Under the pieces are notes generated by a model. That model did no database searches. It saw only the letters and a program-made list of their open reading frames with translations, and was not told where the DNA came from. A stretch of DNA of 64,000 nucleotides, taken from positions 3,501-67,500 of the forward strand of contig JBDLIC010000001.1 of NCBI GenBank assembly GCA_039715075.1, in the 5' to 3' direction. The position numbers were made by a program, and so were the translations under genes. Source of the stretch: Nitrospirota bacterium. GTDB taxonomy: Bacteria > Nitrospirota > Thermodesulfovibrionia > UBA6902. This document shows, piece by piece, positions 2,956-51,961 of this stretch; position 1 is the first letter of the stretch; each line of letters begins with the position of its first letter.

Positions 2956-3192
2956 AGCAGCTTACGTCGAAAACCCCTCAAAAAACTTGTTCTCGCAGTT
3001 CCCGTAGCACCTCCGGAAACAATCGAATCCTTGCAAAAAGACGTTGATGACCTGCTCTGCCTGAGTACCCCGGCATTCTTCAGGGCTATTGGCATGCATT
3101 ACGTTGATTTCGAACAAACTACTGACGAGAAGGTTATTGAACTGCTTGATCTTGCAAGGGACCGGGTTTCATCAGACACAACAAAAGAATAA
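2956..3192 (+). pseudogene. C-terminal remnant of a phosphoribosyltransferase-like protein (no start codon)
   Basis: An open frame, SSLRRKPLKKLVLAVPVAPPETIESLQKDVDDLLCLSTPAFFRAIGMHYVDFEQTTDEKVIELL…, matches the conserved C-terminus of PRTase-family proteins. It begins directly after an in-frame TGA and has no plausible start. Confidence 0.5.
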
Positions 3193-7212: not shown

Positions 7213-7968
7213 ATGTCGCATAAACATAAACACGGCCATCATCACGAAAGGATATCAAAAAGCAGGGAGTGGATGAAGACTCATAAGGACACTGACCGTG
7301 ACTCGTCTGCCAGAGATGCAAAACCAAAACTGGAGTTAGTCCTGAAGTGCGATTCTGCGGGAAGCATTGAGGCAGCCGCTGCCGCTATTTTGAATATAGC
7401 CAACGATGGAATTGATATAAATATCATAAACAGCGGAGTCGGCAATATAAATCATTCAGATATCTTAATGGCAAAAACAGGCAGCAGGCTCATAGCCGGT
7501 TTTCAGGTGAATGTGCTGCCGGGGATAGAAAAGGAACTGGATGAACACAATGTAGAAGTACGTCTTTATGACGTGATCTATGCATTAACCGCCGATATAG
7601 GAAACATAACGCAGAGCATAGCTCCCCATATTCCGGAGGAAGAAATTACGGGTACTGCCAAAGTAATAACCCTTTTTAAAAGCGTCCGCAAGGGGATCAT
7701 TATAGGTTGTGAAGTGTTAGAAGGCCAATTGTCTGTTCATAAACATTTCCGTATCATTTCCGCCATGGGCCCGGTTTATTCCGGCTCTATAGAATCCATG
7801 CATATAGAAAGCGCTTCTGTCCAAAAAGCATCACCGGGACAGCAGGTGGGGATAAAAATACAGAATTTCAACAAAGCAAAAACAGGGGACATTGTAGAAT
7901 GCTACCGACCGGTTGCTGCCGGGAAAAGCAAGGCATGGCAGTCAACAGGAACTGTTATCAGAAAATAA
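7213..7968 (+). CDS. stand-alone IF2 C-terminal-domain protein with a His-rich N-terminus
   Basis: Residues around 40-250 align by eye with IF2 domains C1-C2 (LVLKCDSAGSIEA…GFQVNV…IIGCEVLEG…GDIVECY). There is no GTPase domain. The N-terminus reads MSHKHKHGHHH. Confidence 0.6.
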   Translation: MSHKHKHGHHHERISKSREWMKTHKDTDRDSSARDAKPKLELVLKCDSAGSIEAAAAAILNIANDGIDINIINSGVGNINHSDILMAKTGSRLIAGFQVNVLPGIEKELDEHNVEVRLYDVIYALTADIGNITQSIAPHIPEEEITGTAKVITLFKSVRKGIIIGCEVLEGQLSVHKHFRIISAMGPVYSGSIESMHIESASVQKASPGQQVGIKIQNFNKAKTGDIVECYRPVAAGKSKAWQSTGTVIRK

Positions 7969-13764: not shown

Positions 13765-14979
13765 TCAGAAGTTCTTATGATACTCCTTAACTTTTATTGC
13801 AAACTCCCGGCCAAATTCATAGCACTTAGTTTCATCCTCAGGAGATGGCCTGTATAGCACCTGCATCCCTGGTTCAAAAACCTCAAGCTTCATTCTCCCG
13901 AATTCCTCATATGCGTCCCTGACTGCGCCTCCGCCCCATCCAAAGCTTCCGAACGCACCCATCATCCTGTTTTTGGGACGGAGCCCCCTGAGATGTGTAA
14001 GAAATTCAGCCACAGATGGAAAAAGAATATTATTGAGTGTAGGGCTCCCTACCAGACAGCCGCGCGACTTCCAGAACTCCTTGATCGCCACACTCATCGG
14101 TGTGGCCCTCAGTTTGATGACCTTGCAGTCGATCCCCTCGTCCCTTATTCCCTGCATCAATGGAATTGTCATCCGTTCGGTGCTGTGCCACATCGTGTCA
14201 TATATTATTGCCACCCTCAAATCCGCCTTGCCGTTAGCTATATCCAGATATTTCTGCAAAATACGGCCTGGGTCATTTCTCCATATTATTCCATGGTCAG
14301 GGGCTATCATATCTATCTCCAGACCGAGCTTCTGGACTTCAGCTATCTTTGATTTAATGAGCTGCCCGAATGGCATCAGGATATTTGCATAATACTCAAT
14401 TACAGCATCATCAAGCACAGACCGGGAAACACTGTCATCCAGCTCATCATCAAACCTCGCCGATGTAGCAAGGTGCTGTCCGAATGCATCCTGGGAAAAG
14501 AGTAGTTTGGCTTCCTTGACATATGTCATCATCGAATCCGGCCAGTGGAGCATCGGCGTCTCAAGAAATGTAAATGTGTATTTCCCGGTATTCAGGGTAT
14601 CACCGGTCTTTACCAGTTTGATATTCCATTTAGAAATATCAAAATGCCTGTCAAGACCCTTCTGCCCTTTTTTAGTCAAATAGATCGTGGCATTCGGGGT
14701 AAGCGACATAATGGTGTCCAGTGCGCTTGCATGGTCAGGTTCAATGTGATTTATAATAATGTTGACTATCTTTGAAGGGTCAATCAAATTCCTGATATTT
14801 TTTAGCGTATGTCTCGAAAAATCCTGTTTTACCGTATCGACCAGTGTGATCTGATCATCAAGCACAAGATAATTGTTATAGGTGGTCCCGTTTGGTGTTA
14901 AGTACCCATGGAAATCTCTTACTGCCCAGTCTATAGAACCTACCCAGTAGATATCCGGTTTAATTTCAATAGCTTTCAT
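13765..14979 (-). CDS. FprA-type flavodiiron protein (rubredoxin:oxygen/NO oxidoreductase)
   Basis: A metallo-beta-lactamase-like di-iron domain (HIEPDH) is followed by a flavodoxin domain. The product is 404 aa. Confidence 0.85.
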   Translation of the reverse strand: MKAIEIKPDIYWVGSIDWAVRDFHGYLTPNGTTYNNYLVLDDQITLVDTVKQDFSRHTLKNIRNLIDPSKIVNIIINHIEPDHASALDTIMSLTPNATIYLTKKGQKGLDRHFDISKWNIKLVKTGDTLNTGKYTFTFLETPMLHWPDSMMTYVKEAKLLFSQDAFGQHLATSARFDDELDDSVSRSVLDDAVIEYYANILMPFGQLIKSKIAEVQKLGLEIDMIAPDHGIIWRNDPGRILQKYLDIANGKADLRVAIIYDTMWHSTERMTIPLMQGIRDEGIDCKVIKLRATPMSVAIKEFWKSRGCLVGSPTLNNILFPSVAEFLTHLRGLRPKNRMMGAFGSFGWGGGAVRDAYEEFGRMKLEVFEPGMQVLYRPSPEDETKCYEFGREFAIKVKEYHKNF

Positions 14980-15126
14980 GATTCCTCCTGATTATCGTTA
15001 TAATTTCTGGTCCGTTATTGCAGATGAGGACTAAAGTATAACGGATAACCATACTCTTGTCCATAATACTTCCCGTCTCAAAAACAAGTATTTAAAGAGA
15101 TTTATTACAGTTTCCAGCCGGGAAAA

Positions 15127-15165
15127 AAGCAGCAGCAGTTTTTTAACTGCTGCTGCTTTATATCA
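15127..15165. terminator. Bidirectional intrinsic terminator
   Basis: The sequence is aaaaaagcagcagcagttttttaactgctgctgcttt. It sits directly after the peroxiredoxin stop. Confidence 0.7.
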
Positions 15166-15188
15166 ACAATTGAATATCTTAAGTCCGT

Positions 15189-15809
15189 TTACTTCTCAAG
15201 TGCCTCATGCACCTTTCCTACAAGTTTTGCGGAAGGGGTAAGCGTCTTGTCTCCCTCGTCCTTCCACTTTGCCGGACATCCCTGTTGAGTATGTTTCGCA
15301 AGATGGAGGTTCGCCTTGAACTTCCTCATTAACTCATCCACATTTCTGCCCATATTGTAATAATTGACCTCAGCGTTCATGAGTGTGCCGTCAGGACTGA
15401 TGATAAATGTCCCGCGCAGTGCAAGACCCGTCTCATCATCATAAACCCCGAACATTTTCGCGAGATTTCCGGTCGGATCAGCACCCATTGAATACTTTAC
15501 GTTTGCAAGGGACTGCTCATCTCTCTGCCATGCCAGATGTACAAACTGTGTATCATTGCTTACGGTAATGATCTCGGCACCCATTTTTTTAAACCTGTCC
15601 TGCTGCTCTGCCAGAGCGGCAAACTCGGTTGCTCAGACAAAAGTAAAATCAGCGGGATAGAAAAAAAGTATGGTCCACTTCTTGTTCTTCTTGAGATTTT
15701 TAAGGCTTACCTCGCCGAAATCGCCCTTTGACGGTTCATAAGTAGTCAGCTTAAAATCCGGGATCTTTGCCCCAACATTGCATCCTAAACATTCACATGC
15801 CTCTGTCAT
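15189..15809 (-). CDS. 2-Cys peroxiredoxin with selenocysteine (in-frame UGA) at the peroxidatic position
   Basis: The listed 131-aa ORF is only the C-terminal part. Reading through the TGA at 15633-15635 gives MTEACECLGCNVGAKIPDFKLTTYEPSKGDFGEVSLKNLKKNKKWTILFFYPADFTFV[U]ATEFAALAEQQDRFKKMGAEI… The TGA sits exactly in the FTFVCPTE active-site motif. Confidence 0.7.
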
Positions 15810-15941
15810 TTCACCCCTCCTTTTTTTAGTTAATTTCTGTTATGGAAAGTCCAGTTTGTCACCCTGAACCTGTTTCAGGGTCTCCTAACTATTTGATCTC
15901 CTGATATTCTGAAACGAGTTCAGAATGACCTTTTATAAAAA

Positions 15942-16436
15942 CTAATCAATCTTACTGAATGCCTGTTTTTTGGCTTTGCATACAGGGCATTCATCAGGGG
16001 CACTGCCTTCAGCCGTGAACCCGCATACGTCACATACATAATAGTCACTATCTTCGTTCCTGCCAAGATTATCAAGAGCATTCTGATAAAGTCCAGCATG
16101 GATCTTCTCAACTTCATTGGCAAAATTAAAGCTCCTCAACGCGCCTTTGTTTCCTTCTTCTTCTGCATCTGCAATCATTTGCGGATACATTTCCTTAAAC
16201 TCAAATGTCTCTCCGCCGATAGCTGCCTCAAGGTTCTCCTTTGTACTTTTTATCCCGCCTAGCGCTTTGAGATGACTGTGCGCATGTACTGTTTCTGCGG
16301 CAGCCGCCGCTCTGAAAAGCTTTGCAGCCTGGGAATATCCTTCTTTGTCAGCCTGCTTTGCAAATGCAAGGTATTTTCTGTTGGCCTGTGATTCTCCGGC
16401 AAATGCATCCTGAAGGTTCTTTTCTGATTTAGACAC
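15942..16436 (-). CDS. rbr: rubrerythrin
   Basis: A ferritin-like di-iron domain is followed by a C-terminal rubredoxin-like CDVCG…CPVC. Confidence 0.85.
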   Translation of the reverse strand: MSKSEKNLQDAFAGESQANRKYLAFAKQADKEGYSQAAKLFRAAAAAETVHAHSHLKALGGIKSTKENLEAAIGGETFEFKEMYPQMIADAEEEGNKGALRSFNFANEVEKIHAGLYQNALDNLGRNEDSDYYVCDVCGFTAEGSAPDECPVCKAKKQAFSKID

Positions 16437-16472
16437 TTATTCTTTCTCCTTTTATAAAACTAATATGGTTCT

Positions 16473-16868
16473 CTATTCCGTTACAGTAATTTCTTTTGAT
16501 GCCACCCACTGTCCGTGAATGTTGCACCTTTCTACCACTTTAAGGGTTACGGTCCTGTGTTTTCCGCCCTTTACGAGAGTAACTATCACCTCGGGCTTTG
16601 TAAATACAGGTGTAAGGTCTACCCTTACATTAAAATTGTCACCTGAATGGACATCTATCCACTGGATATGATGGGCCTCCTCCATAACATGGGGAAGACT
16701 CCCGACATTTATCTTTACCTGAAACGGTTCCCCGGCCTTTACCGTATCCGGACAGTCTATAACCGGAGTATGTTTCTTTTCAGGGTCTGTCATGTTTGCA
16801 GGGTCCTCGGGACTATTGTTTCCGCAAAAAATTCCTTTGTCAGACATTATCTTTTCTCCTTTCTCCAA
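16473..16868 (-). CDS. superoxide reductase (desulfoferrodoxin/neelaredoxin family)
   Basis: It has EKKHTPVID, HVMEEAHHIQWID and CNIHGQW centre-II motifs. Confidence 0.75.
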   Translation of the reverse strand: MEKGEKIMSDKGIFCGNNSPEDPANMTDPEKKHTPVIDCPDTVKAGEPFQVKINVGSLPHVMEEAHHIQWIDVHSGDNFNVRVDLTPVFTKPEVIVTLVKGGKHRTVTLKVVERCNIHGQWVASKEITVTE

Positions 16869-16877
16869 CTATTGTTT

Positions 16878-17009
16878 TCAACTTACCGGATCGAATGCCT
16901 CTTTCGGCGCATTGCATACCGGGCAAGCCCAGTCATCCGGCAATTCATTAAAGGGTTTCCCCTCCTTTGCCTCATCATAATCATATCCGCATATACTGCA
17001 CCTGTACAT
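16878..17009 (-). CDS. rubredoxin (43 aa; not in the ORF track)
   Basis: The reverse-strand translation is [43 protein letters not shown], with CxxCG and CPxCG motifs. Confidence 0.8.
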
Positions 17010-17054
17010 GAAATTCTTCCCCTTTCCACCATTATATCACCTGCAATTTCAGAT

Positions 17055-17714
17055 TCAAGCCTTTACCAGGTTTCCCGGCTCAATCTTTGCCAGTGCCGCT
17101 CCCGCCAGCTCTCCTACAGTCTTATTTATTAATTCTTCTTTTTCATAAAATAGAATAGAATCCGTATCACTCCTGAGGCTCTCAAGCCTGTCCGCAGCCA
17201 GGGCAACACCCAGTTCACCGGCTGCCCATGCGGCATATCCGCGAATTGACCGGTCCTGGTTGTTCAGGCAGGAAACAATAATGGGGCCAGCATAATCAAC
17301 CATTTCAGTGTGGGTTTTCCCCATTCTCCCGGCAGCCCGCATTACACCGGCAGTAAGCATTATTTCCTCATGAAAAGAGACAATAATCGTAGCAATGTCC
17401 GCGCATAATAAAGGATTGTTTCTCACTATTTCACCCAGGATCTCAGGAGCGCTCCAGCCGATCCCGCCTGACTCGTCCCGTATCATCCACATTAGCCGTC
17501 CGGTTGTGCTCTTCACCATGTCAGGATCTGTACCGGCGATCCTGCCGGTAATCAGGCCAATGGCCTCCATTGCGCGCCACGAGATGACACTGTCCTTGTC
17601 GTAGGTCATTGAGATCAGCATGGTCAGGACTCTTCTTGTGTTTGATGACTGTTTGATCAGTTCATCATATTTCTTTTCACTTAAAATGTTTGTGATCTCT
17701 TTCTTTAAACGCAT
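17055..17714 (-). CDS. HEAT/PBS-lyase-like repeat protein
   Basis: It shows repeated helical HEAT-like units and is embedded in the redox cluster. Confidence 0.5.
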   Translation of the reverse strand: MRLKKEITNILSEKKYDELIKQSSNTRRVLTMLISMTYDKDSVISWRAMEAIGLITGRIAGTDPDMVKSTTGRLMWMIRDESGGIGWSAPEILGEIVRNNPLLCADIATIIVSFHEEIMLTAGVMRAAGRMGKTHTEMVDYAGPIIVSCLNNQDRSIRGYAAWAAGELGVALAADRLESLRSDTDSILFYEKEELINKTVGELAGAALAKIEPGNLVKA

Positions 17715-17732
17715 GGTTACCTCACATTTGAT

Positions 17733-17945
17733 TTACCGGAAAATCAATTCAATGCCCGGCACTTTATCTTTGATTGCATCTTCGATACATTTGGGTTCGC
17801 AGTCTGCGCATCGTCCGCCGCAATATATGGTCACCCTGCTGCCATTTACTTCTCCCAGTTCTGCGTAACCGTCATGTGCCTCTATATAAGATCTTATAGC
17901 ACCAAGAGCTTCTGTGATTTCATTTTCCATTTTATTCATTTCCAT
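17733..17945 (-). CDS. NifU-like (Nfu C-terminal domain) Fe-S assembly protein
   Basis: The CGGRCADC motif resembles the Nfu GACxGC motif. Confidence 0.55.
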   Translation of the reverse strand: MEMNKMENEITEALGAIRSYIEAHDGYAELGEVNGSRVTIYCGGRCADCEPKCIEDAIKDKVPGIELIFR

Positions 17946-17983
17946 ATAATAACTTTAAAAATTATTGAGCATTCATTCACTGC

Positions 17984-18481
17984 CTAGCCGCCCTCGAGCA
18001 CTCCATGTTCCTCCCACATGAACCATTCGCCGGTATCCGCAAGGAATTTATAAGTGTTATCAAGTATCTCGTAGTGCTTCTGCTCTTCAGCGGTCAGGAC
18101 TTCAAAAAGCCTTTTCTCCTTTTCCTCTTCTGCTTCCCGGGCGGCCTTTTCATAAAAATGGTAGCCCTCCCTTTCAAAATCAAGCGCTATTTTCACCGCC
18201 TCTATTTCATCCGCTGTTGCGGTTATTCTCTGCATCATCCCGTCCTTGAGTTCCGTGAATATAGTCTTTATGTCTTCACCGATATGAACACCCTTCGTAT
18301 CAATCTCCAGGTCATTCAGTATATCCTTAAGCATTTTCAGATGTCGTGATTCGTCCGACACAAAACCATCAAATATTTTCCTGCCCAGAGGATGTGAAAT
18401 CTTATCTCTCGCTTCGCTGTAAAAACTCATGGCATCCGTTTCCATTTTCACTGCTGTCTCAACCGCCCTGCTTAGTGACAT
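17984..18481 (-). CDS. rubrerythrin/ferritin-like di-iron protein
   Basis: It has E-x-x-H motifs (ESRH, EEQKH) and a CAGGAGG RBS. Confidence 0.6.
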   Translation of the reverse strand: MSLSRAVETAVKMETDAMSFYSEARDKISHPLGRKIFDGFVSDESRHLKMLKDILNDLEIDTKGVHIGEDIKTIFTELKDGMMQRITATADEIEAVKIALDFEREGYHFYEKAAREAEEEKEKRLFEVLTAEEQKHYEILDNTYKFLADTGEWFMWEEHGVLEGG

Positions 18482-18497
18482 AGTTCACCTCCTGTTT

Positions 18498-18659
18498 CTA
18501 GCTGTTATTAAACAAAGAACCACATTTCCCGCACTTTATTTCAGTATCATCACTCCATGCCTCAATTTCATACCCGCATGACTGACACTTAACCTCTGTC
18601 GGAAATGGAGCAGATTTGACCGAACATGCCGGTTTTTCTTCCAGTCTTCTATCCTTCAT
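18498..18659 (-). CDS. small zinc-ribbon protein (53 aa; not in the ORF track)
   Basis: The translation is MKDRRLEEKPACSVKSAPFPTEVKCQSCGYEIEAWSDDTEIKCGKCGSLFNNS. Confidence 0.5.
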   Translation of the reverse strand: MKDRRLEEKPACSVKSAPFPTEVKCQSCGYEIEAWSDDTEIKCGKCGSLFNNS

Positions 18660-19092
18660 ATGCCTTCCTCCATCCTTCTTCCTTTAAGCGGACCATCCTG
18701 CTTATGGCCCATTTTTTTATTTCACTGAAATATTTCTTTGGATCCACTTTTGCCAGTTCGGCCAGATCCGTCTTTTCCCGCACACTGTCTATATGATCAC
18801 CAGGATATACACCGCGCCATGTTACATATCCCTGATCAAAGAGCGTCTCCGGTGAAAGGTTATCCGCATGATGCGCCGGCAGCCTGTTATTGTAAAGCGC
18901 TGCAACTTCCATGTCGTATTTAATTACCCATCCATTGTCATGCAGCATATTATGCTGCTCTATTGCCAGGTCTCCTGAACAGTCCGGACAATACAGGATT
19001 TCAATTACCTCAGGGGGCATTATTTCATTCTTAAAATTAAAACTTGCGTCCCTCTTTCCGCATTTGCAGATTATTGAATGCTCCATGCACAT
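18649..19092 (-). CDS. cysteine-rich hypothetical protein
   Basis: It has CKCG…CPDCSG motifs and an AGGAGG RBS. Confidence 0.55.
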   Translation of the reverse strand: MCMEHSIICKCGKRDASFNFKNEIMPPEVIEILYCPDCSGDLAIEQHNMLHDNGWVIKYDMEVAALYNNRLPAHHADNLSPETLFDQGYVTWRGVYPGDHIDSVREKTDLAELAKVDPKKYFSEIKKWAISRMVRLKEEGWRKAYEG

Positions 19093-19110
19093 ATTGCTTC
19101 CTCCTTATGA

Positions 19111-19218
19111 TTATCCTTCCTTCTTCATGGTTCCGTCTGAACCGCATTTCGGACATTTTTTAGGCTTGCACCTTCCTTCTTTTGTAGCTCCACAGCTGTC
19201 GCACTTAAATGTTGCCAT
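19111..19218 (-). CDS. small zinc-ribbon protein (35 aa)
   Basis: An internal start after a GGAGG RBS gives MATFKCDSCGATKEGRCKPKKCPKCGSDGTMKKEG. The longer listed ORF overlaps perR. Confidence 0.5.
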   Translation of the reverse strand: MATFKCDSCGATKEGRCKPKKCPKCGSDGTMKKEG

Positions 19219-19261
19219 TTCCAATACCTCCTTCTTTTTACCCGGACATACGTCCGGACTT

Positions 19262-19657
19262 TCAATGAGATTTACATTCAGGACAGACACCGTAAAATTC
19301 AATATGATTGCCTAGAAGGTCAAATTCATCATCAACTTCCTCAGGCACGTTGATTGAAAACTTTTTGTGAACGTCCACTATCTTTTTGCACTCCACACAT
19401 ATCAGGTGGTGGTGCGGCTTCGTCTGAGGGTCATATCTTCTTCTTTCAGGATCAATAGTCAGTTCGAGCAGGTCTCCCTTTTTCTTCAGGGCCTCAATCG
19501 TGTTGTATACTGTTGCAAATGACATCATCGGGTACTTCTTTTTTACCTCTCTGAAAATATTGTCTGCTGACGGATGGTCAGTGTTTCCATCAAGGAACTC
19601 CAGTATTGCCAACCTCTGAGGTGTAAGTTTCAGGCCTAATTCTCTAAACTTTTCCAT
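19262..19657 (-). CDS. perR: Fur-family regulator, PerR-like by context
   Basis: It has a Fur fold with HHH…CxxC…CPxC motifs and heads a peroxide-stress gene array. Confidence 0.75.
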   Translation of the reverse strand: MEKFRELGLKLTPQRLAILEFLDGNTDHPSADNIFREVKKKYPMMSFATVYNTIEALKKKGDLLELTIDPERRRYDPQTKPHHHLICVECKKIVDVHKKFSINVPEEVDDEFDLLGNHIEFYGVCPECKSH

Positions 19658-25698: not shown

Positions 25699-27024
25699 TC
25701 ATGGATATATGGCATTAAATAACCTATTTGCCCGTTCATTATCAAGGTCTTTCAGTGTCTTGTATTCATCTAAGGCAGAACCCTGATCATCTTCTAAAAT
25801 ATAAATAAGACCAAGCTTAAAGTGTACCTCTGCATCATCAGGTTTAAGCCTGATTACCTGTTTGTAGGCATCTACTGCTTCCTGATACTTACCTAAATCT
25901 GCATAGGCAAGACCAAGATTATTGTGTAGAGTTGCATCATCAGGTTTAATCCCGATTGCCTGCTTGAAAGCATCAATTGCTTCTTGATATTTGCCTAACT
26001 CTCCATAGGCAAGACCAAGATTATTGTGTACAGTTGATTGTTCAGGTTTAATCTTGATTGACTGCTTAAGGGCATCTACTGCTTCCTGATTTTTGCCCAA
26101 CTTCCAATAGGCAAGACCAAGATTAGCACGTGCTTCTGCATAGGCAGGTTTGATCCTGATTGTCTGTTTGAAGGCATCCACTGCCTCCTGATACTGGCCT
26201 GATTTAACATAAGCAGTACCAAGATTATTATGTCCAGTTGCATCATCAGGTTTAATTCTGATTACCTGCTTAAAGGCATCTACTGCCTCCTGATACTTGC
26301 CCAATTTCATATAGAGTACTGCAAGATTATTGTGTGCATTTGCATGGTCAGGCTCAATCCTGATTGCCTGCTTGTAGGCATCTTCTGCCATCTGATACTT
26401 TCTCAAATCCTCATAGGAAATTTCAAAATTATAGTGTGCGACTAAATAATCAACAGGTAAAATCTTGATTGCCTGTTTGAAGACATCCTCTGGCTCCAGA
26501 TACTTGCTCAATCTCCTATAAGCATTACCAAGCATATTGTATGCATCTGCATGGCCAGGTTCAATCCTGATTGCCTGCTTGAAGGCATCCACTGCCTCCT
26601 GATACTTACCCAATTTCATGTAAGCAATACCATGATTGTAATGTGCATTGGCATAATCAGGTTCAATCCTGATTGCCTGCTTGAAGGCATCCACTGCCTC
26701 CTGATACTTGCCCAACTTCCTATAGATAAAACCAAGACTATAGTGTGCTTGTCCATAATCGGGATCAATCCTGATTGCCTGTTTTAAGGCATTTACTGCT
26801 TCCTGATTTTTGCCCAAATTCCCATAGGAAAGACCAAGATTGTAGTATGCGTCGGCATCTTCAGGTTCAATCCTAATTACTTGTTTGTAGGCATCTACGG
26901 CCTCTTGATGCTTGCCCGATTCAGCATAGGCAAGAGCAAGTTCAAAATAATAACCTTCATCCTTCATCTGATTATTAGCCTTGTCTGAATCAGCAAAGGC
27001 AATAGATGTGATAATAAATACCAA
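25699..27024 (-). CDS. TPR-repeat protein with about 12 near-identical 34-aa units; secreted
   Basis: The 102-nt units are almost identical at the DNA level. The listed start is TTG. A signal peptide (KRNFVFVVLIFLVFIITSIAFA) lies in frame just upstream, so the true start is a few codons earlier. Confidence 0.7.
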   Translation of the reverse strand: MVFIITSIAFADSDKANNQMKDEGYYFELALAYAESGKHQEAVDAYKQVIRIEPEDADAYYNLGLSYGNLGKNQEAVNALKQAIRIDPDYGQAHYSLGFIYRKLGKYQEAVDAFKQAIRIEPDYANAHYNHGIAYMKLGKYQEAVDAFKQAIRIEPGHADAYNMLGNAYRRLSKYLEPEDVFKQAIKILPVDYLVAHYNFEISYEDLRKYQMAEDAYKQAIRIEPDHANAHNNLAVLYMKLGKYQEAVDAFKQVIRIKPDDATGHNNLGTAYVKSGQYQEAVDAFKQTIRIKPAYAEARANLGLAYWKLGKNQEAVDALKQSIKIKPEQSTVHNNLGLAYGELGKYQEAIDAFKQAIGIKPDDATLHNNLGLAYADLGKYQEAVDAYKQVIRLKPDDAEVHFKLGLIYILEDDQGSALDEYKTLKDLDNERANRLFNAIYP

Positions 27025-30214: not shown

Positions 30215-33200
30215 ATGCCCAAAGACAATATAATAAACCTGAATCAGAAAAGGCTGTTTAAGGCCCTCGAATCTTTTCCGGCCAATTCAATTTACTCAAT
30301 GGGTCCAAAGAAGTATGTAGAACGCGGGTATAATTATTATAACAAGAACCGCCTGCTGGACTTCAGGTGGAGCGCTGATTTCTCTACACTCACTGCAACA
30401 GTATACGGCAGCAGGCATTATTCGATTGATATTTCTCCGAACGGCAATGATTTGTCACTGTTCTGTAACTGCCCGGCATGGACTCCATATACTCACTGCA
30501 AGCATGTTATATGTACACTTATTACAATAAAAAACCTCTTTCAACCCTCTTCTTTCAGAAATCCTGCACAGGATGCCGTGCAAAGGGAATCAATATCCAG
30601 GATTCTTTTTGGAACAGCGGCCACTGCTCCTGAGCCGGACATACCTGTCGAATATTCAATTGTTCTTGAATTATCGTCTTATGTTCATGATATATATGTT
30701 CAGGGTAACGATCAAAAGATATATCCTTATATGGACGGAATCCCGGATGAGCTTAAGACATTAGCAGCTGCGTCCTATTATAAATTGTCCTTTTTTAAAC
30801 AATACCTAATCAATTACGGCAACAAACATCCGATATTTATTCAATCAGTCAAAGGGAAAACAGCCCTTGAATTCGATAAGTCCCTATCTTACTCATCTAA
30901 AACCGAACTGGATGATAAAGGCAGCTTTGTATCAATACGAAAACTTTGTATGGACAAAGGAAGGGAAACCAGTGATGTTCATATTGAAAACGATTTAATC
31001 ATTGACGTTAATGCAGGAAAGATCGGTTTTTTAAATGAAAGAAATGGATGGGACCTCTGGAACAATTTATCGGAATTTACCTACGATGATAATAACTTCA
31101 TTCCGGACGAACCGGAAAAATCATTGGGAATTTCTGCAGAAAAGTTCAGGAAAATTCAGATCATTTTTCAGTCTCTGCCTTCACAGGAAGGGACTCCTGA
31201 TAACATGGTCCTCAGGATCCGTGGCAGGGAATGTCCATCAGTAAAGGCGTCACACACCTACCGGGCAACGATCTTTCCCGCAAAATATAATAAAGACGTT
31301 TTCATAATAAAGGCCGAATGCAACCTCAATGGTCTGATACAGTCCCCTTCATATAATTTTTTTAATTTCTTTGCATCAATAGATCATAAACTGAGCGGTT
31401 TCATGCGGGCAATCAAAAGGAAGAAATTACTTTGCAGGGCTTTCTTCAATATGATTTCAGCCAGGACAAAAACAGCCGGACTCAGGACTATTAAGGACGT
31501 CCTGTCAGAAGGCGACTTTAAACGCGCCTCTATAAAACGTGAGGCCCGCAGCTTCCTTCATCATCATCTTTCGGTCTTTTTAAGAGATGAAAAACAATTA
31601 CAGCTGCATAACGGCAGCTGGATAGTATCGCAGGTAGCCAAGGGAAAAGAGGCGCTGCTTTACAGTATTCCTTATGAAATATTCGGCTGGGAAATATTCA
31701 GAAATGTTCTTAAACATGATGAAATGTTTGTGCCTTCAGGAGACCTGCATGAAAACCTGCCGCTGCTTTATGAAAGATTCAGGGAACATAATATTGAGCT
31801 CTACTTTAAAAACAGCCGTGTAGTCGAATCAAAATGGGACTTTGCCTTTGATGCAGACAGGGCCGCAGGCATTGACTGGTTTGAGATAAAGCCCGAGATA
31901 AAGTGCGACGGCAAGCTAATTGACGAATCGGAATGGATGGAGATGCTCAGAAAAAAAACACTAACCGGCAAGGACGGAGCCATACGGATAATGGACTCCA
32001 ATGCCCGGAAAATATTCAACATAATTTCGACAATTTACTCAGCAGGCAATCCGTCAGCAGCCAACGCAAAGGAAAAGGAGATAGTGCGGGTTCCGAGGCT
32101 TCAGATACTGGACTGGATAGAGCTCCGTCGCAGCGGGGTCAGGGTCAAGCTCCCGCCAGAAGATAATAAGATAATTGAGCGCCTGGGCCGCCTTGAAAAA
32201 ATCAGCACCCGCCCCCTGCCTTCAAAACTGACGGCAAAGCTCAGGCCATATCAGAAAGAGGGCTATTACTGGCTTTCATTCCTCTATGAGCACCGGTTCG
32301 GCGCATGCCTTGCCGATGACATGGGGCTCGGAAAAACAGTACAGGCTATTGCCCTGCTCGGGGGAATCAAGGAAGGGCTGGTCAGATTTCCGGTCAGGAC
32401 CAAACCATCTGCACATCTTATTGTAGTCCCGCCGACTCTTCTCTTTAACTGGGAACATGAGATAAATAAATTCTGTCCCGGTTTAAAAATACATATGTAT
32501 ACAGGCAAAGACCGGAAGGCCAACTTCAAGGGACATGACATTGTTCTTACAACATACGGCCTTGTACGGAGGGACATTGAAACGCTCAAAGACATCCGGT
32601 TTGATGTAATCATATTTGACGAGGCCCAGGCGATTAAGAACATATACGCTGATACAACAGGGGCAGTAAGGCGGCTAAGCGCCAATTTCAATCTGGCAGT
32701 GACAGGCACCCCGCTTGAAAACCACGTTGGGGAATACTACTCGATCATCGACCTTGTACTTCCCGGGCTGCTCGGAGAGCATGACAGGTTCAGGCCCCTT
32801 ATAAAACAGAACGTCTCTCCTGTCCTGGATATGATAATTAACAGGACAAGACCGTTCGTCCTCCGAAGGACAAAGGACAGGATATTAAAAGAGCTGCCGC
32901 CAAAAATTGAGAATGATATATATCTTGAGCTCACAGAAAAACAGAAAACCCTTTATAAAAAAACCGTTGAACAGGTCAAATCAAAAATCGATGATGCTTA
33001 CAAAAGCAAGACATCGGCACAGGCAAAGATAATTGCCCTTACCGCCATTCTGAAACTCAGACAGTTGTGCGTCTCCCCGGTCCTGATCTCAGGGGACACC
33101 AAGGAACCTTCACCCAAGATCGATTTCCTTATCACAAAACTAAAAGAGCTTCAGGACGAAGGCCACAGTGCGCTCGTATTTTCACAGTTTACATCATTCC

Positions 33201-33628
33201 TTGACATCCTCGAAAAAGACCTCAAAAAAAGCATGATGGATTTCCTGAGGCTTGACGGATCTACACCAGTCAGTAAGAGAAAGCAGCTCATCGATAAATT
33301 CCAGTCTGAAAAAGGCCCTTCCATATTCCTCCTGAGCCTCAAGGCCGGCGGCCAGGGACTGAACCTTACAAAGGCCTCCTATGTCTTTCACCTCGATCCA
33401 TGGTGGAACCCTGCAGTTGAAAATCAGGCATCCGACAGGGCACATCGGATAGGCCAGAAAAATAAAGTAACGATCACAAGGATACTTACTCACCATACAA
33501 TCGAAGAAAAGATGATGCATCTGAAGAAAAAGAAACTCGCCCTTTATAAAGCTGTTATGGACGATACAAAAGGAAACAAAAAAAGCCTTTCCGTTTCCAG
33601 GTCTGACTTCAATTTCCTTTTAAACTGA
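30215..33628 (+). CDS. SNF2-family helicase with an N-terminal SWIM zinc finger
   Basis: It has a CNCPAWTPYTHCKH SWIM motif and a DEAD-like helicase core (LADDMGLGKT, DEAQ). The 1137-aa product also has a helicase C-domain. Confidence 0.85.
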   Translation: MPKDNIINLNQKRLFKALESFPANSIYSMGPKKYVERGYNYYNKNRLLDFRWSADFSTLTATVYGSRHYSIDISPNGNDLSLFCNCPAWTPYTHCKHVICTLITIKNLFQPSSFRNPAQDAVQRESISRILFGTAATAPEPDIPVEYSIVLELSSYVHDIYVQGNDQKIYPYMDGIPDELKTLAAASYYKLSFFKQYLINYGNKHPIFIQSVKGKTALEFDKSLSYSSKTELDDKGSFVSIRKLCMDKGRETSDVHIENDLIIDVNAGKIGFLNERNGWDLWNNLSEFTYDDNNFIPDEPEKSLGISAEKFRKIQIIFQSLPSQEGTPDNMVLRIRGRECPSVKASHTYRATIFPAKYNKDVFIIKAECNLNGLIQSPSYNFFNFFASIDHKLSGFMRAIKRKKLLCRAFFNMISARTKTAGLRTIKDVLSEGDFKRASIKREARSFLHHHLSVFLRDEKQLQLHNGSWIVSQVAKGKEALLYSIPYEIFGWEIFRNVLKHDEMFVPSGDLHENLPLLYERFREHNIELYFKNSRVVESKWDFAFDADRAAGIDWFEIKPEIKCDGKLIDESEWMEMLRKKTLTGKDGAIRIMDSNARKIFNIISTIYSAGNPSAANAKEKEIVRVPRLQILDWIELRRSGVRVKLPPEDNKIIERLGRLEKISTRPLPSKLTAKLRPYQKEGYYWLSFLYEHRFGACLADDMGLGKTVQAIALLGGIKEGLVRFPVRTKPSAHLIVVPPTLLFNWEHEINKFCPGLKIHMYTGKDRKANFKGHDIVLTTYGLVRRDIETLKDIRFDVIIFDEAQAIKNIYADTTGAVRRLSANFNLAVTGTPLENHVGEYYSIIDLVLPGLLGEHDRFRPLIKQNVSPVLDMIINRTRPFVLRRTKDRILKELPPKIENDIYLELTEKQKTLYKKTVEQVKSKIDDAYKSKTSAQAKIIALTAILKLRQLCVSPVLISGDTKEPSPKIDFLITKLKELQDEGHSALVFSQFTSFLDILEKDLKKSMMDFLRLDGSTPVSKRKQLIDKFQSEKGPSIFLLSLKAGGQGLNLTKASYVFHLDPWWNPAVENQASDRAHRIGQKNKVTITRILTHHTIEEKMMHLKKKKLALYKAVMDDTKGNKKSLSVSRSDFNFLLN

Positions 33629-40679: not shown

Positions 40680-41726
40680 TTAACTCTTGTCTGATAATTT
40701 CGGTTCAGGAATTATTTTTCTTTTTACCTTTATTGCGACCTTAATATCTTTTCTTTTAGCCAGACTTATAATTAAGCTGCCTTCAGGTATTTTTCTAACT
40801 TTCTCATTAAAATATCCATCTTCTGTTTTTACCCAGCTTTGGTTATAGTTCTTTCCCATCCATATACCAATTTCTTTGCCTCCGAACTGTTTCCCGTCCT
40901 TTAATTGAGCTATAACTTCAATTTCATCGTCAATTCTGATATCATCTTTTGCAAATTTTATCGCCCTAATTTGACCAAATTCATTTTCAAAAGCATCGTT
41001 AAAAGTAAAAGTTTTCTCAAAAACAACTTTTATGGAAGGAACACTGAAAACATTAGCAGATATTTCCTGCCTGATATCTTCCATTACTTCTTCTTTCAGA
41101 TTTTCACATTGCGGGCCCGGGCACTTATTGGAAGAAAGTTTTAATACTTTATACGCTGCCCGTTTCTGCCGCTGATTATCACCTTTAGCATAGAAAATGC
41201 TTTTTGCGTAATATTCAGCATTGCCGGTCGCATCACCAAGAGAAACAAAAAAATTATATCCTTCATCCTGACCTATACTCGTATCAAATGTCACCGCCTT
41301 TTCAAAATAATCGCCCGCTGTCGGATAGTCTTCTTTACTGAATGACCAGTTAGCAATTTTCCTGTATTCATGTCCTATCTCGTCTCCATAATCCGGATTC
41401 AGCTTATACGCACTTTTAAAGACTTCATCTGCACTCCAGAAGTTGTCGTTATTTATGTACGCAATACCCAGCAGTAAGTGAATTTCTGCATTTGCGAGAT
41501 TTTCTAAAAGTGCTTTTTCCAGTAGACTGACGGCCTGTGGATATTGACCGGCTTCCATAAGATTTTTGCCTTTTTTCAGATTTTTTCCCATCAGCGCATT
41601 GCTCTGGGACACAGAAATAAAAAGAATAAAAAAGCAGATTATAAATAAAAGACCTCTTTTCTTTATCTTATCCATACTCTCATCTCCCATGAATACCCTG
41701 CATATATTATTGTTTTGACAATGCAA
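40680..41726 (-). CDS. TPR-containing protein (Tad locus accessory)
   Basis: The probable true start is the internal MDKIKKRG… with a signal peptide. Confidence 0.55.
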   Translation of the reverse strand: MHCQNNNICRVFMGDESMDKIKKRGLLFIICFFILFISVSQSNALMGKNLKKGKNLMEAGQYPQAVSLLEKALLENLANAEIHLLLGIAYINNDNFWSADEVFKSAYKLNPDYGDEIGHEYRKIANWSFSKEDYPTAGDYFEKAVTFDTSIGQDEGYNFFVSLGDATGNAEYYAKSIFYAKGDNQRQKRAAYKVLKLSSNKCPGPQCENLKEEVMEDIRQEISANVFSVPSIKVVFEKTFTFNDAFENEFGQIRAIKFAKDDIRIDDEIEVIAQLKDGKQFGGKEIGIWMGKNYNQSWVKTEDGYFNEKVRKIPEGSLIISLAKRKDIKVAIKVKRKIIPEPKLSDKS

Positions 41727-42663
41727 TATTATTTACTTCTTTGGCATTCACAATATTTTCATGGGCCTTAACATAAAATCTGCTGTTTAATTCTTGAGCT
41801 TTTTCAAAAGCCTGAACAGCTTCACCATACTTACCTTCAATCATGTAAATATATCCGATATTATTGTAAGCGGAAGCGTTATCTCCGGCCTTTTTGAATG
41901 CCTCGACAGCTTCATCGTATCTTTCCAGCTTGCTTAATGACAGGGCTAAATTGTTGTATGTTTTTGTTTTGGTCCCATCATGCTCCAGTGCTTTCATATA
42001 TGAATCCAGGGCATTTTCATATTCACCGTTAAAATAGTATGACATTCCCAGATTGTTGAATAAAGATCCATCGTCAGGATTAAGGGCAATAGCAGTTTTA
42101 TATTCCTGTATGGCAATTCCATATTCCTTCTGACGGTCGTATATTATTCCAAGAAAATTATGGACCTGCCACAGTGTTGGATCATGACTTACAGCCAGAA
42201 TAAAGTTTTTTTCTGCCTCCTCCAATTTGCGCATTTTAAAATATGCCCTTCCCATTCCCTCAAATGCCAGGGAGTTTTCCGGATCAGATAATAAAACATC
42301 CTGAAAAATTCTGATTGCCTGCGCATACAGTCCTTTCCTCAAAAAGAGACGTCCCATTTTGTCTCGTACAGCAGTATTTTCCCTTTCCAGGCGCAGAGCC
42401 TTATTGTATTGTATGAAGGCCTTATTTATGTCTCCCTGTCTGACATAGTTGTCTCCCAGCCTCTCATGTTCTTCAGCCTTAATTGCAGGCAGTTTTCTGG
42501 CAATCTTTTTCTGCTCGGAGGCAGAAGCTATTTTTTGCTGCCGTTCCATCATAATTTCATACTGGCTTTTCTTGAAAAGACCCTGCATATCCTTCATCGA
42601 ACTGCAACCCGATAAAACTATCATTATGCAAATGGTAAAAACACATGAAATAAATACTCTCAT
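41707..42663 (-). CDS. tadD: TPR lipoprotein, TadD-like
   Basis: It has a lipobox LSGC and multiple TPRs. Confidence 0.6.
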   Translation of the reverse strand: MRVFISCVFTICIMIVLSGCSSMKDMQGLFKKSQYEIMMERQQKIASASEQKKIARKLPAIKAEEHERLGDNYVRQGDINKAFIQYNKALRLERENTAVRDKMGRLFLRKGLYAQAIRIFQDVLLSDPENSLAFEGMGRAYFKMRKLEEAEKNFILAVSHDPTLWQVHNFLGIIYDRQKEYGIAIQEYKTAIALNPDDGSLFNNLGMSYYFNGEYENALDSYMKALEHDGTKTKTYNNLALSLSKLERYDEAVEAFKKAGDNASAYNNIGYIYMIEGKYGEAVQAFEKAQELNSRFYVKAHENIVNAKEVNNIALSKQ

Positions 42664-43769
42664 GTCTTATTACTCCCTTCATCAAACACATTAAACAGTT
42701 TTCTTACAAATGAGAAAAGCGTCTTTTTTCTGGATGTTAAGCCCTTTTCAGTTGACTTTAAACCAGGTCCGTATATTGGTTTACCGAATAATAACTTCTC
42801 TTTTTTCTGTATTAAATCAGGTCCATATATTGGTTTACCGAATACCAACTTCTCATTTTTCTGTATTAAGCCAGGTCCGTATATTGGTTTACCGAATACC
42901 AACTTCTCATTTTTCTGTATTAAGCCAGGTCCGTACATTGGTTTGCCAAATACCAATCTCTTATTTTTCTTTATACGAGAGATTACTTTTCTGCTTTTAC
43001 GGTAATTATCAGTTTCAGGTATTATCTTTGTTGAGTCAATCCGTGAGATAAGAGTTTCAAAGGAAGTATCAACAGTCAAGTCATTTGAAGAACCTTTTTC
43101 TACTTCAGGAGCTAAATATTTTTCGTATAGCATCCTCTTGAAATTATAGCGAGCAGCTTCTCTGTTTCCAGCCAATCTGAATTCATCAACAGCCTGTTCA
43201 AATTTGTGATGCTTTGTATATGCCAGGCCCAGGTTATTGTGGTATTGCTTATTTCTGTTATTTAAATCTACAGCCTTCTCTAAAAACATAACAGCTTCAT
43301 CATATTTTCCCTGAAGTATATAAGAGTACCCCAGGTTGTTCAGAGCATAATCAAGTTCAGGATTCAGAGTAAGAGCATTTTTGTAATAAGCAACAGCTCT
43401 GGAAAAATCGCCTAACTTGTCGTAAGAGACTCCGATTCTATTGTATGCCTTCACATAAGCAGGATCAATTGATATTGTTTTTTCAAGCTCCTCAATAGCT
43501 TCTTGATGTCTGCCCCTCTCCTGGTAATATTTTGAAAGCAGGTAATGTGAGTCAGGATTACCCCTTGCCGGTCTTATAGACACACCAAAATCTGCTATAT
43601 CTTTGTTTGAAATCCCGGTCTTTATGTTTGAATAGTCCGAAAACTGAAGACTGCTAAATATGTTTTGAGTGGTTGAACAACCGGTAAGAAAAACAAGAAA
43701 AACTCCTATAACAATCAAACCTCTGATACCTTTATCTTTTATTTTTCTTTTTTTCATTCTGTCTCCCAT
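42660..43769 (-). CDS. TPR lipoprotein with four tandem 18-aa repeats
   Basis: The repeat unit is LVFGKPIYGPGLIQKNEK. The corresponding 54-nt DNA tandem repeats lie at about 42765-42980. Confidence 0.6.
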   Translation of the reverse strand: MGDRMKKRKIKDKGIRGLIVIGVFLVFLTGCSTTQNIFSSLQFSDYSNIKTGISNKDIADFGVSIRPARGNPDSHYLLSKYYQERGRHQEAIEELEKTISIDPAYVKAYNRIGVSYDKLGDFSRAVAYYKNALTLNPELDYALNNLGYSYILQGKYDEAVMFLEKAVDLNNRNKQYHNNLGLAYTKHHKFEQAVDEFRLAGNREAARYNFKRMLYEKYLAPEVEKGSSNDLTVDTSFETLISRIDSTKIIPETDNYRKSRKVISRIKKNKRLVFGKPMYGPGLIQKNEKLVFGKPIYGPGLIQKNEKLVFGKPIYGPDLIQKKEKLLFGKPIYGPGLKSTEKGLTSRKKTLFSFVRKLFNVFDEGSNKT

Positions 43770-43812
43770 TATCTATATTTATATGCTAAGCAGATTTACT
43801 CCCGTCTTTTCA

Positions 43813-44787
43813 TTACCCTCCAAGGTAAGGGAACAAATTCCTGTATATCCTTATTGCCGCAGGCCCCAAAAGCACAACAAATAATGATGGAAAAATAAAA
43901 CATATTAAAGGGAAAACCAGTTTTACAGGCAATTTGGCAGCAATCTCTTCAGCCATCTGATGCCTTTTGTCTCTCATTGAATCAGAATGCACTCTTAGAG
44001 CCTGGGCAATACTGGTCCCAAACCTGTCAGTCTGTATCAACAGACTTATCAGGCTGTTCACATCTTCCAGATCTATACGCATTGCAAGATTTCGCAATGC
44101 TTCACGGCGTGTTTTTCCTGCCCTCAATTCCAGGCTCAAGAGTTTAAATTCCCCGCTTATTACTTTATTTTTCAGCTCGATCTCTCTCCCGGCCCTGAAT
44201 ATTGCTGCATCCAGTCCCATACCCGCTTCTACACAAACAACCATCAGATCAAGAGCATCGGGAAATCCTTCCAGTATCTTCCTCTTTCTTTGGGCAGTCA
44301 CCAGTTTGAGCCAATAATTAGGGAGGAAATAACCGATTAAAGCTATCACAATAGAAAACGTCATAAAACTAACAAAGGGCATTGCCTTGGTAAGAAAAAC
44401 TTTAAAGAAAAGAAGGCCTACAGGCAGAAGTATGGCAAGAAGGACTTTCATGCCATAAAAGATCATCATGGCATTGCTTTTCCTGTAACCGGCCCGAACA
44501 AGACCCTTTTTCATCTTATAAATGTCCTGTTCACCTTTTGGTTTAATGAGGCTGCCAAGAGGATCAACAAGCCTTAAAAAATATTTTTTAACAGAGCCGG
44601 CACCATCAGCATCTTTAGTTTTATCACCTGAATTCCCGCCTGAATTTAATCCTTCTGTTCCTCCCTTAATTTTTTCAATTAATTCACGCTGACTTTTGCG
44701 ATAATTATAGTAATAAAATATTCCTGATCCCAGAAACATGATTCCGGCAAATACTAAAATTGATATCAATAAAGCGGTCTCCGGCAT
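43813..44787 (-). CDS. tadC: Flp pilus assembly protein TadC (T2SS-F family)
   Basis: The product is a T2SSF-domain membrane protein. Confidence 0.8.
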   Translation of the reverse strand: MPETALLISILVFAGIMFLGSGIFYYYNYRKSQRELIEKIKGGTEGLNSGGNSGDKTKDADGAGSVKKYFLRLVDPLGSLIKPKGEQDIYKMKKGLVRAGYRKSNAMMIFYGMKVLLAILLPVGLLFFKVFLTKAMPFVSFMTFSIVIALIGYFLPNYWLKLVTAQRKRKILEGFPDALDLMVVCVEAGMGLDAAIFRAGREIELKNKVISGEFKLLSLELRAGKTRREALRNLAMRIDLEDVNSLISLLIQTDRFGTSIAQALRVHSDSMRDKRHQMAEEIAAKLPVKLVFPLICFIFPSLFVVLLGPAAIRIYRNLFPYLGG

Positions 44788-44797
44788 TTTTTCCTCC

Positions 44798-45763
44798 TTA
44801 TACCCGAATAGAAATCATTTTTTTCATAACAAGCGTTCCAATTATCATCATGACAACCGCTCCGGCCATCAGTATTTTCCCTATCGGATCGTTTAATAAT
44901 GGTGCAAGAAACTTAGGATTAACCATAAACATATATAAACTGATTAAAAAGGGAAGGGAGATGAGCACAGCAGCTGATAGCTTTCCTTCAGATGATAACA
45001 CACTTACGCGGCCCTGAAATTTGAATCGTTCCCTGATAAGATGACTGATCTTTTCCAGTATTTCGGCAAGATTACCGCCTGTTTCCTTCTGAATAATTAC
45101 CGAAATAACAAAAAAAGTAAGATCAGGACAATCGACCCTGTTTGTGAGATTTATTAAAGCATCTGAAACACCGACACCAAAGTTGATTTCATCCATAGTC
45201 TTTTCAAACTCAGTACCTACAGGGTCTTCAAATTCATCTGCCACCATCCGTATCCCTGCTGAAAACGCGTGCCCTGCTTTTAATGCCCGGACGATTAAAT
45301 CTAGCGCATCAGGCAGCTGTCTCTCAAACTTACTCATCCGTTTACTTCTCATGTAATATACATAAAGGAATGGCATGGTTGAAGCAACACATGCCAGAAG
45401 AGCAGCAATCAGAAAATTAACGGTAAGCAGCGAACCTGCCATATAACCGCATGCAGCAAACAACAAAGTAAGCAACAGGTAATATCCAACGGGATGACTT
45501 ATATTGGCCTGCTCCATTAAGCGTTCCAGTTGATTCACTACAGGGAAATTAAGAAGCATCCGGTTAAACCACGGCACATCACTCAATAAGCGCTTCCTGG
45601 CAATATCAATCTCTTCGCTCTTAAGACTTCCCGATGAGAGTGTCCTTAAACGTTTCTTGATCTTTTTTTGTTCTGGCTTCTTTCCTGTCTTCGAAATAAA
45701 ATAGACCCCTTCTGCCAGCAAGACAATTGTTAAGAATATTCCTACACCTATTATTATTTCCAT
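44798..45763 (-). CDS. tadB: Flp pilus assembly protein TadB
   Basis: The product is a T2SSF-domain membrane protein. Confidence 0.8.
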   Translation of the reverse strand: MEIIIGVGIFLTIVLLAEGVYFISKTGKKPEQKKIKKRLRTLSSGSLKSEEIDIARKRLLSDVPWFNRMLLNFPVVNQLERLMEQANISHPVGYYLLLTLLFAACGYMAGSLLTVNFLIAALLACVASTMPFLYVYYMRSKRMSKFERQLPDALDLIVRALKAGHAFSAGIRMVADEFEDPVGTEFEKTMDEINFGVGVSDALINLTNRVDCPDLTFFVISVIIQKETGGNLAEILEKISHLIRERFKFQGRVSVLSSEGKLSAAVLISLPFLISLYMFMVNPKFLAPLLNDPIGKILMAGAVVMMIIGTLVMKKMISIRV

Positions 45764-45781
45764 AATTTTTTACACCTCATA

Positions 45782-47173: not shown

Positions 47174-47212
47174 ATAAACCTCTCCTAATAATTTTTTTTT
47201 ACTCTATAATAA

Positions 47213-50174: not shown

Positions 50175-50186
50175 AATTTCATTCTC

Positions 50187-50492
50187 CTACTTTTTACCTG
50201 CCCCACCAATGGAAAACGAGTACACAGGATCCTTTTGAGGTGATGCAAATTTTTTCAGGTACTTGTCAACAGATTTTTGTGCTGCCCTTCCGTTAAAACC
50301 TTCAACCGGCGCCAGGTTTTTCTCTGCATCAGGATTTAATATCTGGTTGAATTTCTGAAGTTTATACGATGTCCCGAAGTCCGTCTCTAATCTGCTCTTT
50401 TTCTGTTCAGCCGCGACAACGGAAACAGAAAGCATTAATAATATAAACCCTGTTAAAACAGCAATTCTGTATATCATCTTATCCTCCTTCAT
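50187..50492 (-). CDS. small secreted hypothetical protein
   Basis: A 101-aa ORF with a signal peptide. Confidence 0.45.
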   Translation of the reverse strand: MKEDKMIYRIAVLTGFILLMLSVSVVAAEQKKSRLETDFGTSYKLQKFNQILNPDAEKNLAPVEGFNGRAAQKSVDKYLKKFASPQKDPVYSFSIGGAGKK

Positions 50493-50494
50493 TT

Positions 50495-51958: not shown

Positions 51959-51961
51959 AGA

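Follow-up and report, generated by a model that had tools for sequence, protein, structure and literature searches.

PrxU of Eubacterium acidaminophilum, attributed to Sohling (2001), is said to be the founding member of the peroxiredoxins that contain selenocysteine (Sec). By 2006 the peroxiredoxin (Prx) selenoproteins numbered 12, with representatives in Geobacter metallireducens, Anaeromyxobacter, Syntrophus, Syntrophobacter and others (PMC1794560), and a 2026 review enters the family as 'Prx, PF00578, TxxU' (PMC13188914). The gene described here lies at 15189..15809 on the minus strand of a 64,000-nucleotide stretch of contig JBDLIC010000001.1 (positions 3,501 to 67,500; assembly GCA_039715075.1), which is called the window throughout and belongs to a Nitrospirota metagenome-assembled genome. 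It encodes a 206-aa peroxiredoxin of the AhpC/Prx1 type in which an in-frame TGA occupies the codon of the peroxidatic cysteine, and from its sequence and that of its relatives it is very probably a functional selenoprotein gene whose product is a typical 2-Cys peroxiredoxin with a peroxidatic Sec59. It shares with the known family the AhpC/TSA fold, the placement of Sec in a PxxxTxxU motif, an in-frame stem-loop after the UGA, anaerobic hosts and the coexistence of Cys-form homologs. The gene is one more member of a long-established family; neither the mechanism nor the family is new.

The closest solved structure is that of Salmonella AhpC (E = 6e-47). The AhpC proteins of Salmonella typhimurium and E. 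coli (PDB 1yf1, 1yep, 4o5r) align with residues 14-200 of the window protein, including both catalytic positions. The in-frame stop falls on the peroxidatic Cys46, and Cys178 (TGT, 15276..15278, minus strand), in a CPAKW motif, falls on the resolving Cys165, as in a typical 2-Cys peroxiredoxin. The C-terminal tails are also alike (EGDKTLTPSAKLVGKV versus EGEATLAPSLDLVGKI). Unlike AhpC, the window protein has Sec for Cys46, CATE/UATE for CPTE and a 13-residue Cys-rich N-terminal extension, and there is no AhpF nearby; it scores 199.4 bits against the AhpC equivalog TIGR03137, whose cut-off is 272. The preliminary description of this DNA had compared the gene with PrxU. That analogy is valid at the level of the family but goes no further, as the protein reaches 180 bits against the PrxU equivalog NF040737 (cut-off 270), the match begins only at position 36 of the 233 profile positions, and the nearest solved relative is Salmonella AhpC. 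In contrast to PrxU, the window protein belongs to an AhpC-like UATE/CATE clade with Ala for Pro and the resolving Cys retained, and its host is a Nitrospirota bacterium.

The reading frame and its internal TGA

The frame runs on the minus strand from an ATG at 15807-15809 to a TAA at 15189-15191 and contains 206 codons before the stop. Its sole internal stop is the TGA at codon 59 (15633..15635). A Shine-Dalgarno sequence, AGGAGG, can be read directly at 15816..15821, with a 6-nt spacer to the ATG. The mechanical list of open reading frames (ORFs) contains the gene only as two halves, 15633..15809 (58 aa) and 15189..15584 (131 aa). The preliminary description had taken the 131-aa ORF as the end of a full-length 2-Cys peroxiredoxin and had read a continuous frame upstream to this ATG and its ribosome binding site; both readings are borne out by the 206-codon frame, the Pfam match given below and Cys178.

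With the stop replaced by Cys, residues 12-143 match Pfam PF00578 (AhpC-TSA) with 125.9 bits against a cut-off of 26. Around the active site the product reads WTILFFYPADFTFV-stop-ATEFAALAEQ, with the motif FYPADFTFV-stop-ATEF. The peroxiredoxin catalytic set, P52-A-D-F-T56-F-V-U59 together with R132, lies entirely in columns that are invariant among the homologs, and T56-F-V-U59 conforms to the TxxU definition of the selenoprotein family. Cys178 is likewise invariant in the full-length homolog alignment, and a C[PA]xxW motif is found in 99 of 100 Sec forms.

Among the 29 nearest full-length database homologs (65-79% identity), column 59 is Cys in every case and FTFVCATEF is invariant, so that the TGA sits exactly at the peroxidatic codon, as had been claimed. 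Sec forms are cut by gene callers, so that the full-length entries of the databases are necessarily Cys forms. All 29 homologs have Ala instead of the canonical Pro after the catalytic residue, and since FTFVCATEF is invariant, this Ala is a character of the clade and not a sign of damage. The comparison with FTFVCPTE as the canonical motif, made in the preliminary description, was right for the position of the Cys, but the exchange of Ala for Pro is clade-wide (CATE/UATE) and no oddity of this gene. The Cys orthologs include P0001 (79% identity), P0004 (73%, with the same MTEACECLGCNVG N-terminus) and peroxiredoxins of Nitrospirota and 'Ca. Magnetoovum'. They agree with the window protein in length, FTFVCATEF, CPAKW and the N-terminal Cys motif, and differ in having TGY where the window has TGA; the codons that form the hairpin described below vary freely in them, apart from a few that retain a relic of it.

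Sec forms were sought with the pattern TTYACNTTYGTN-TGA-GCNACNGARTT in one genome per species (GTDB). At least 120 loci have TGA at the identical codon, and the species-representative genomes that carry them span about ten phyla. The hosts among the matches listed include Nitrospirota (Thermodesulfovibrionia), Desulfobacterota (including Geobacteraceae), Acidobacteriota, Planctomycetota, Methylomirabilota (Rokubacteria), Gemmatimonadota, Chloroflexota, Myxococcota and others. The frame remains open for about 146-148 codons past the TGA in about 100 of these listed loci, whose conceptual products are 55-77% identical to the window protein over their full length. Between the window gene and seven close relatives, the ratio of nonsynonymous to synonymous differences (pN/pS) is 0.14-0.20 downstream of the TGA and 0.11-0.25 upstream of it, with synonymous sites close to saturation. 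As the ratio is alike on both sides, the part after the UGA is under purifying selection and is maintained as protein.

The TGA is not a sequencing error, one of the outcomes that the preliminary description had named as fatal to its reading: an independent Logan assembly, of run SRR27843388, matches the window with 100% identity across 1992 bp, TGA included. At 90% identity the 58-aa N-terminal piece clusters with others of its kind, 19 in all, which come from NCBI, JGI, ENA and Logan. TGA is also the stop codon of 16 of the 32 well-supported genes of the window, and on this ground a genome-wide reassignment of TGA was rejected. With TGA in ordinary use as a stop in this genome, its decoding within the peroxiredoxin frame calls for a recoding signal close by.

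The hairpin downstream of the UGA

With the U of UGA numbered +1, a hairpin with the core GCCGCUCU-GGC-AGAGCAGC occupies nt +16..+34 (15602..15620, minus strand). It begins 12 nt past the UGA and consists of an eight-position stem with a GGC loop (G24-G25-C26). Seven of the eight pairs are formed, namely G16-C34, C17-G33, G19-C31, C20-G30, U21-A29, C22-G28 and U23-A27, while C18.A32 is unpaired. Three further pairs, of U13-U15 with A35-G37, lengthen the stem to 15599-15623. The hairpin had been put forward in the preliminary description as a candidate bacterial selenocysteine insertion sequence (SECIS) about 12 nt past the UGA; it exists at that distance, although the 7-nt arms proposed for it hold the C.A mismatch.

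The model that Zhang and Gladyshev gave for bacterial SECIS elements (bSECIS) has four criteria (PMC13188914). For a loop of 3-9 nt on an upper stem of 4-16 bp, the window has a 3-nt loop, GGC, and an uninterrupted upper stem of 5 bp, compared with 8 bp in the family consensus. The loop pattern N1-G-(G or U)-N-N2, with G in the first two loop positions, is represented by U23-G24-G25-C26-A27. The distance from the UGA to the loop is 20 nt (positions +4 to +23) in an allowed range of 16-37 nt, and the minimum free energy of nt +10..+42 is -10.9 kcal/mol, below the limit of -7.5 kcal/mol. E. coli fdhF provides the experimental prototype of the bSECIS consensus, with which the window hairpin has in common a coding-region stem-loop 3' of the UGA and a small G-G loop. 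It is otherwise unrelated to the fdhF element in primary sequence and lacks the bulged U. The spacing in the minimal fdhF element is 11 nt, akin to the 12-nt spacer here.

In a comparison that proved decisive, 99 distinct Sec-form sequences were set against 96 distinct Cys-form sequences of the same clade, the latter collected from metagenomes with a TGY pattern and 55-78% identical. In the 99 Sec forms nt +16..+33 read GCTGCTCTGGCAGAGCAG almost invariantly, regardless of genomic G+C. At the wobble positions +18, +21, +24, +27, +30 and +33, the entropy is 0.65, 0.24, 0.00, 0.20, 0.30 and 0.08 bit in the Sec forms and 1.73, 1.86, 1.43, 1.53, 1.68 and 1.56 bit in the Cys forms, G24 being invariant in the former. 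At wobble positions beyond the hairpin the two sets are equal. All eight core pairs are formed in 87 of the 99 Sec forms and seven in the other 12, whereas the median Cys form has four of eight; the mean minimum free energy of nt +10..+42 is -12.9 kcal/mol in Sec forms versus -7.7 kcal/mol in Cys forms.

The alignment of 99 sequences also shows covariation. Paired cells make up 98.5% of the total, and compensatory changes occur in five of the eight pairs, for example from U18-A32 to C-G and from U21-A29 to C-G. None of 500 shuffles reaches the observed values, and no slid register comes close to them. In the window itself the consensus is matched at 15603-15620 with one mismatch, the sole such match there, and by the codon usage of the window the five consensus-matching codons would co-occur with a probability of about 0.007. 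A second consensus match, at 3052-3069 on the minus strand, has three mismatches and no upstream gene with an in-frame TGA, and was rejected as due to chance.

On these comparative data the hairpin is to be regarded as a real SECIS under selection specific to UGA-containing genes, and the proposal that it acts as one gains from the Sec-only constraint on wobble positions, the covariation and the agreement with all four parts of the bSECIS model. Its significance comes from the 99 Sec and 96 Cys forms and not from the fold of a single sequence. The contrast between the two sets is a natural control that demonstrates RNA-level selection on a SECIS within coding sequence. The unusual invariance of the hairpin across phyla is probably due to its also encoding a conserved peptide, AALAEQ. 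In the Cys-form (TGC/TGT) metagenome loci L154/L205, L212 and L237, the SECIS sequence GCTGCTCTGGCAGAGC still follows the Cys codon; it looks like a relic of a recent replacement of Sec by Cys. For identifying further members, TGA at the FTFV_ATEF codon together with GCTGCTCTGGCAGAGCAG at +16 is a clean diagnostic of the clade.

Proposed function and competing explanations

By the established bacterial mechanism, the hairpin at +16..+34 would serve as the SECIS bound by SelB.GTP.Sec-tRNA(Sec). The complex would deliver Sec to the UGA in the A-site in place of release factor 2, and the ribosome would then translate 147 further codons. The product would form the usual head-to-tail dimer. By analogy with AhpC/Prx1 chemistry, Sec59, activated by Pro52, Thr56 and Arg132, would reduce H2O2 or an organic hydroperoxide and be converted to a selenenic acid, which Cys178 of the partner subunit would resolve to a selenenylsulfide. 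A thioredoxin-like reductant would recycle the latter.

Several observations weigh against a functional selenoprotein gene. No selA, selB, selD or tRNA-Sec was found within the 64-kb window (ARAGORN; NCBIfam on 40 ORFs), in which ARAGORN finds two tRNA-Ser only. This copy of the SECIS has the C.A mismatch at 18:32, where 87 of 99 relatives pair U-A. Folded alone, the 71 nt after the UGA are no more stable than shuffled sequences (z = -0.6). The preliminary description had proposed such a fold as a check; taken alone it is uninformative, and the comparison of Sec with Cys forms takes its place. Lastly, Rfam returned no SECIS family in either a gathering or a permissive search, only chance miRNA matches with E > 1, a null result that is expected because no matching model appears in Rfam.

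The least improbable of the rival explanations, though still an unlikely one, is that the gene is of true Sec type but its genome has lost the Sec machinery, leaving a non-functional relic that ends at codon 59. Bacteria have often lost the Sec trait (PMC1794560), and this reading would account for the mismatch in the SECIS as well as for the lack of sel genes and tRNA-Sec in the window. The window is, however, a small part of the genome, so that absence from it says little. Nitrospirae are reported to carry selB with an embedded selC (PMC13188914), and the lineage therefore uses Sec. The gene itself is intact, with all the invariant residues kept and both a ribosome binding site and a terminator present, and a non-pair at the same stem position is tolerated by four other Sec forms. 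The numbering of GenBank records also bears on this point. Accession MEN8261857 falls on the peroxiredoxin locus, between MEN8261856 (FprA) and MEN8261858 (rubrerythrin), and the gap suggests that the locus already has a protein record from the Prokaryotic Genome Annotation Pipeline (PGAP), and not a pseudogene. GenBank thus probably annotates the gene already. The full-length protein, with X or C at residue 59, has no exact match in the sequence collection that was searched.

The locus would instead be a broken Cys-peroxiredoxin pseudogene if the TGA had arisen from TGY by a recent nonsense mutation or through an error of sequencing or assembly. In favour of this, the TGA is a single base away from TGC or TGT, Cys is present in all of the nearest full-length homologs in the databases, and the gene is split by gene callers. 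Against this, the hairpin has the wobble signature of the Sec forms, which the Cys forms lack, and at least 120 genomes share the TGA at this codon. In a crude neighbour-joining tree of 98 Sec and 100 Cys forms, the window falls within a pure-Sec subclade with L039, L061 and L068, and the independent Logan contig is identical. There is neither a frameshift nor a second stop, and pN/pS downstream of the TGA is about 0.17. Such a pseudogene is very improbable.

No better placed is the possibility that the UGA is read in another way, by near-cognate read-through with Trp or Cys or by Cys mis-charged on tRNA(Sec), to give a selenium-free protein. Low-level read-through of UGA exists in bacteria, but a dedicated hairpin of the SelB type, conserved and at the canonical distance, would not persist if read-through were unprogrammed. 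Moreover, an enzyme with Trp as its catalytic residue would be inactive, and Cys forms simply use TGY. Least credible of all are two separate products, a 58-aa N-terminal peptide and a 131-aa protein from an internal ATG (15582-15584), for although automatic gene calling reads the locus in this way, no Shine-Dalgarno sequence precedes the internal ATG, neither half has a complete peroxiredoxin fold or both catalytic residues, and the homologs are all single chains of 200-215 aa. A functional gene decoded with Sec at codon 59 is therefore the reading that we adopt.

The window contains no second candidate for a selenoprotein gene. The peroxiredoxin gene is its only plausible pair of ORFs joined by a TGA, the other pairs being antisense to annotated genes.

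Gene neighbourhood and evolution

The gene is part of a cluster on the minus strand (13765-19657) of the kind with which anaerobes classically defend themselves against oxygen and peroxide. At its head is a PerR-like Fur-family protein (19262..19657), the probable regulator, which matches the NCBIfam PerR model with 125 bits, below the equivalog cut-off. It is followed on the same strand by small Zn-ribbon ORFs and a 147-aa protein, a ferritin-like rubrerythrin (17984-18481), a DVU0298-family protein with HEAT repeats (MEN8261861.1, 17055-17714), a rubredoxin (MEN8261860.1, 16878-17009), a neelaredoxin-type superoxide reductase (16473-16868), a rubrerythrin (MEN8261858.1, 15942-16436) and the Sec-peroxiredoxin. 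Downstream of the last lies an intrinsic terminator (15121..15159, minus strand), in which a U tract comes after a 15-bp (GCA)n/(UGC)n stem. Its fold has an energy of -28.1 kcal/mol (z = -4.7), and none of 200 shuffles is equally good. The FprA flavodiiron protein (MEN8261856.1, 13765-14979) is encoded beyond the terminator. PerR, superoxide reductase, rubrerythrin, rubredoxin and FprA recur beside the Sec-peroxiredoxin gene in related Nitrospirota loci (L019, L036, L039, L041, L043, L094, L095, L097, L104 and L108). From its place in a PerR-headed cluster, the gene would therefore serve peroxide defence in an oxygen-sensitive Nitrospirota bacterium.

The 132-nt spacer between the rubrerythrin and Sec-peroxiredoxin genes contains a perfect 8-bp inverted repeat, ACCCTGAA-ACAGG-TTCAGGGT, at 15861-15881 on the minus strand. 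It lacks a T-run and so may function not as a terminator but as an operator or as a hairpin for RNA processing.

The N-terminal extension of the protein carries a Cys cluster, C5-E-C7-L-G-C10 (15780..15797, minus strand). This CxCxxC cluster (MTEACECLGCN) is confined to the immediate clade, in L039, L061, L068, L104 and P0004. CC is found at the N-terminus in other Nitrospirota and Geobacter forms, and 61 of 100 Sec forms have no Cys there, which places the cluster outside the core mechanism. The CxCxxC or CC motif may provide a further site for redox chemistry or metal binding.

Sec and Cys forms are interleaved in the neighbour-joining tree, which requires at least 15 Sec/Cys switches, compared with about 66 when the labels are shuffled. 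A single origin of the Sec state in the UATE/CATE clade is plausible, since one SECIS sequence is common to all Sec forms. A wider proposal, which we make tentatively and hold to be somewhat less probable than its opposite, is that the UATE Sec-AhpC proteins are a single ancient lineage apart from PrxU and AhpC, with the SECIS GCUGCUCU-GGC-AGAGCAG near-identical across about ten phyla, and that the interleaved Cys forms are mostly secondary Sec-to-Cys reversions, a relic SECIS being retained in some of them. For the peroxiredoxins, the direction of change was reportedly inferred in 2006 to be from Cys to Sec. If the proposal is true, the reversions run opposite to that inference.

Gene callers split genes of this kind into a 58-aa and a 131-aa 'AhpC-TSA' product in Logan and JGI. 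As a consequence, both the peroxide defence and the selenium dependence of anaerobic Nitrospirota are under-counted.

The remainder of the window contains several further features. A c-di-GMP-I-GGC riboswitch aptamer is found at 644-726 on the minus strand (Rfam RF03167, 65.7 bits against a gathering threshold of 59). A 251-aa ORF at 7213-7968 on the plus strand encodes a stand-alone protein whose resemblance to translation initiation factor IF-2 is confined to the C-terminal part of the profile (positions 378-581 of 587, E = 2e-41). Genes for tRNA-Ser(CGA), tRNA-Ser(GGA) and the small signal recognition particle (SRP) RNA stand in a row at 60952-61517 on the plus strand, upstream of dnaX, ybaB and recR. 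A 1137-aa SNF2-family helicase (30215-33628, plus strand) has sub-threshold similarity to the pilus-regulating Snf2 and to the ZorD and DrmD defence helicases. A Tad/Flp-type pilus cluster at about 40680-53347 on the minus strand encodes a TadA-like ATPase, a CpaE/MinD-like ATPase, a secretin and several proteins with tetratricopeptide repeats (TPR). Another TPR protein, at 25699-27024, exceeds the cut-off of the MamA model because its repeats match the model several times over; the signal is probably one of TPRs in general.

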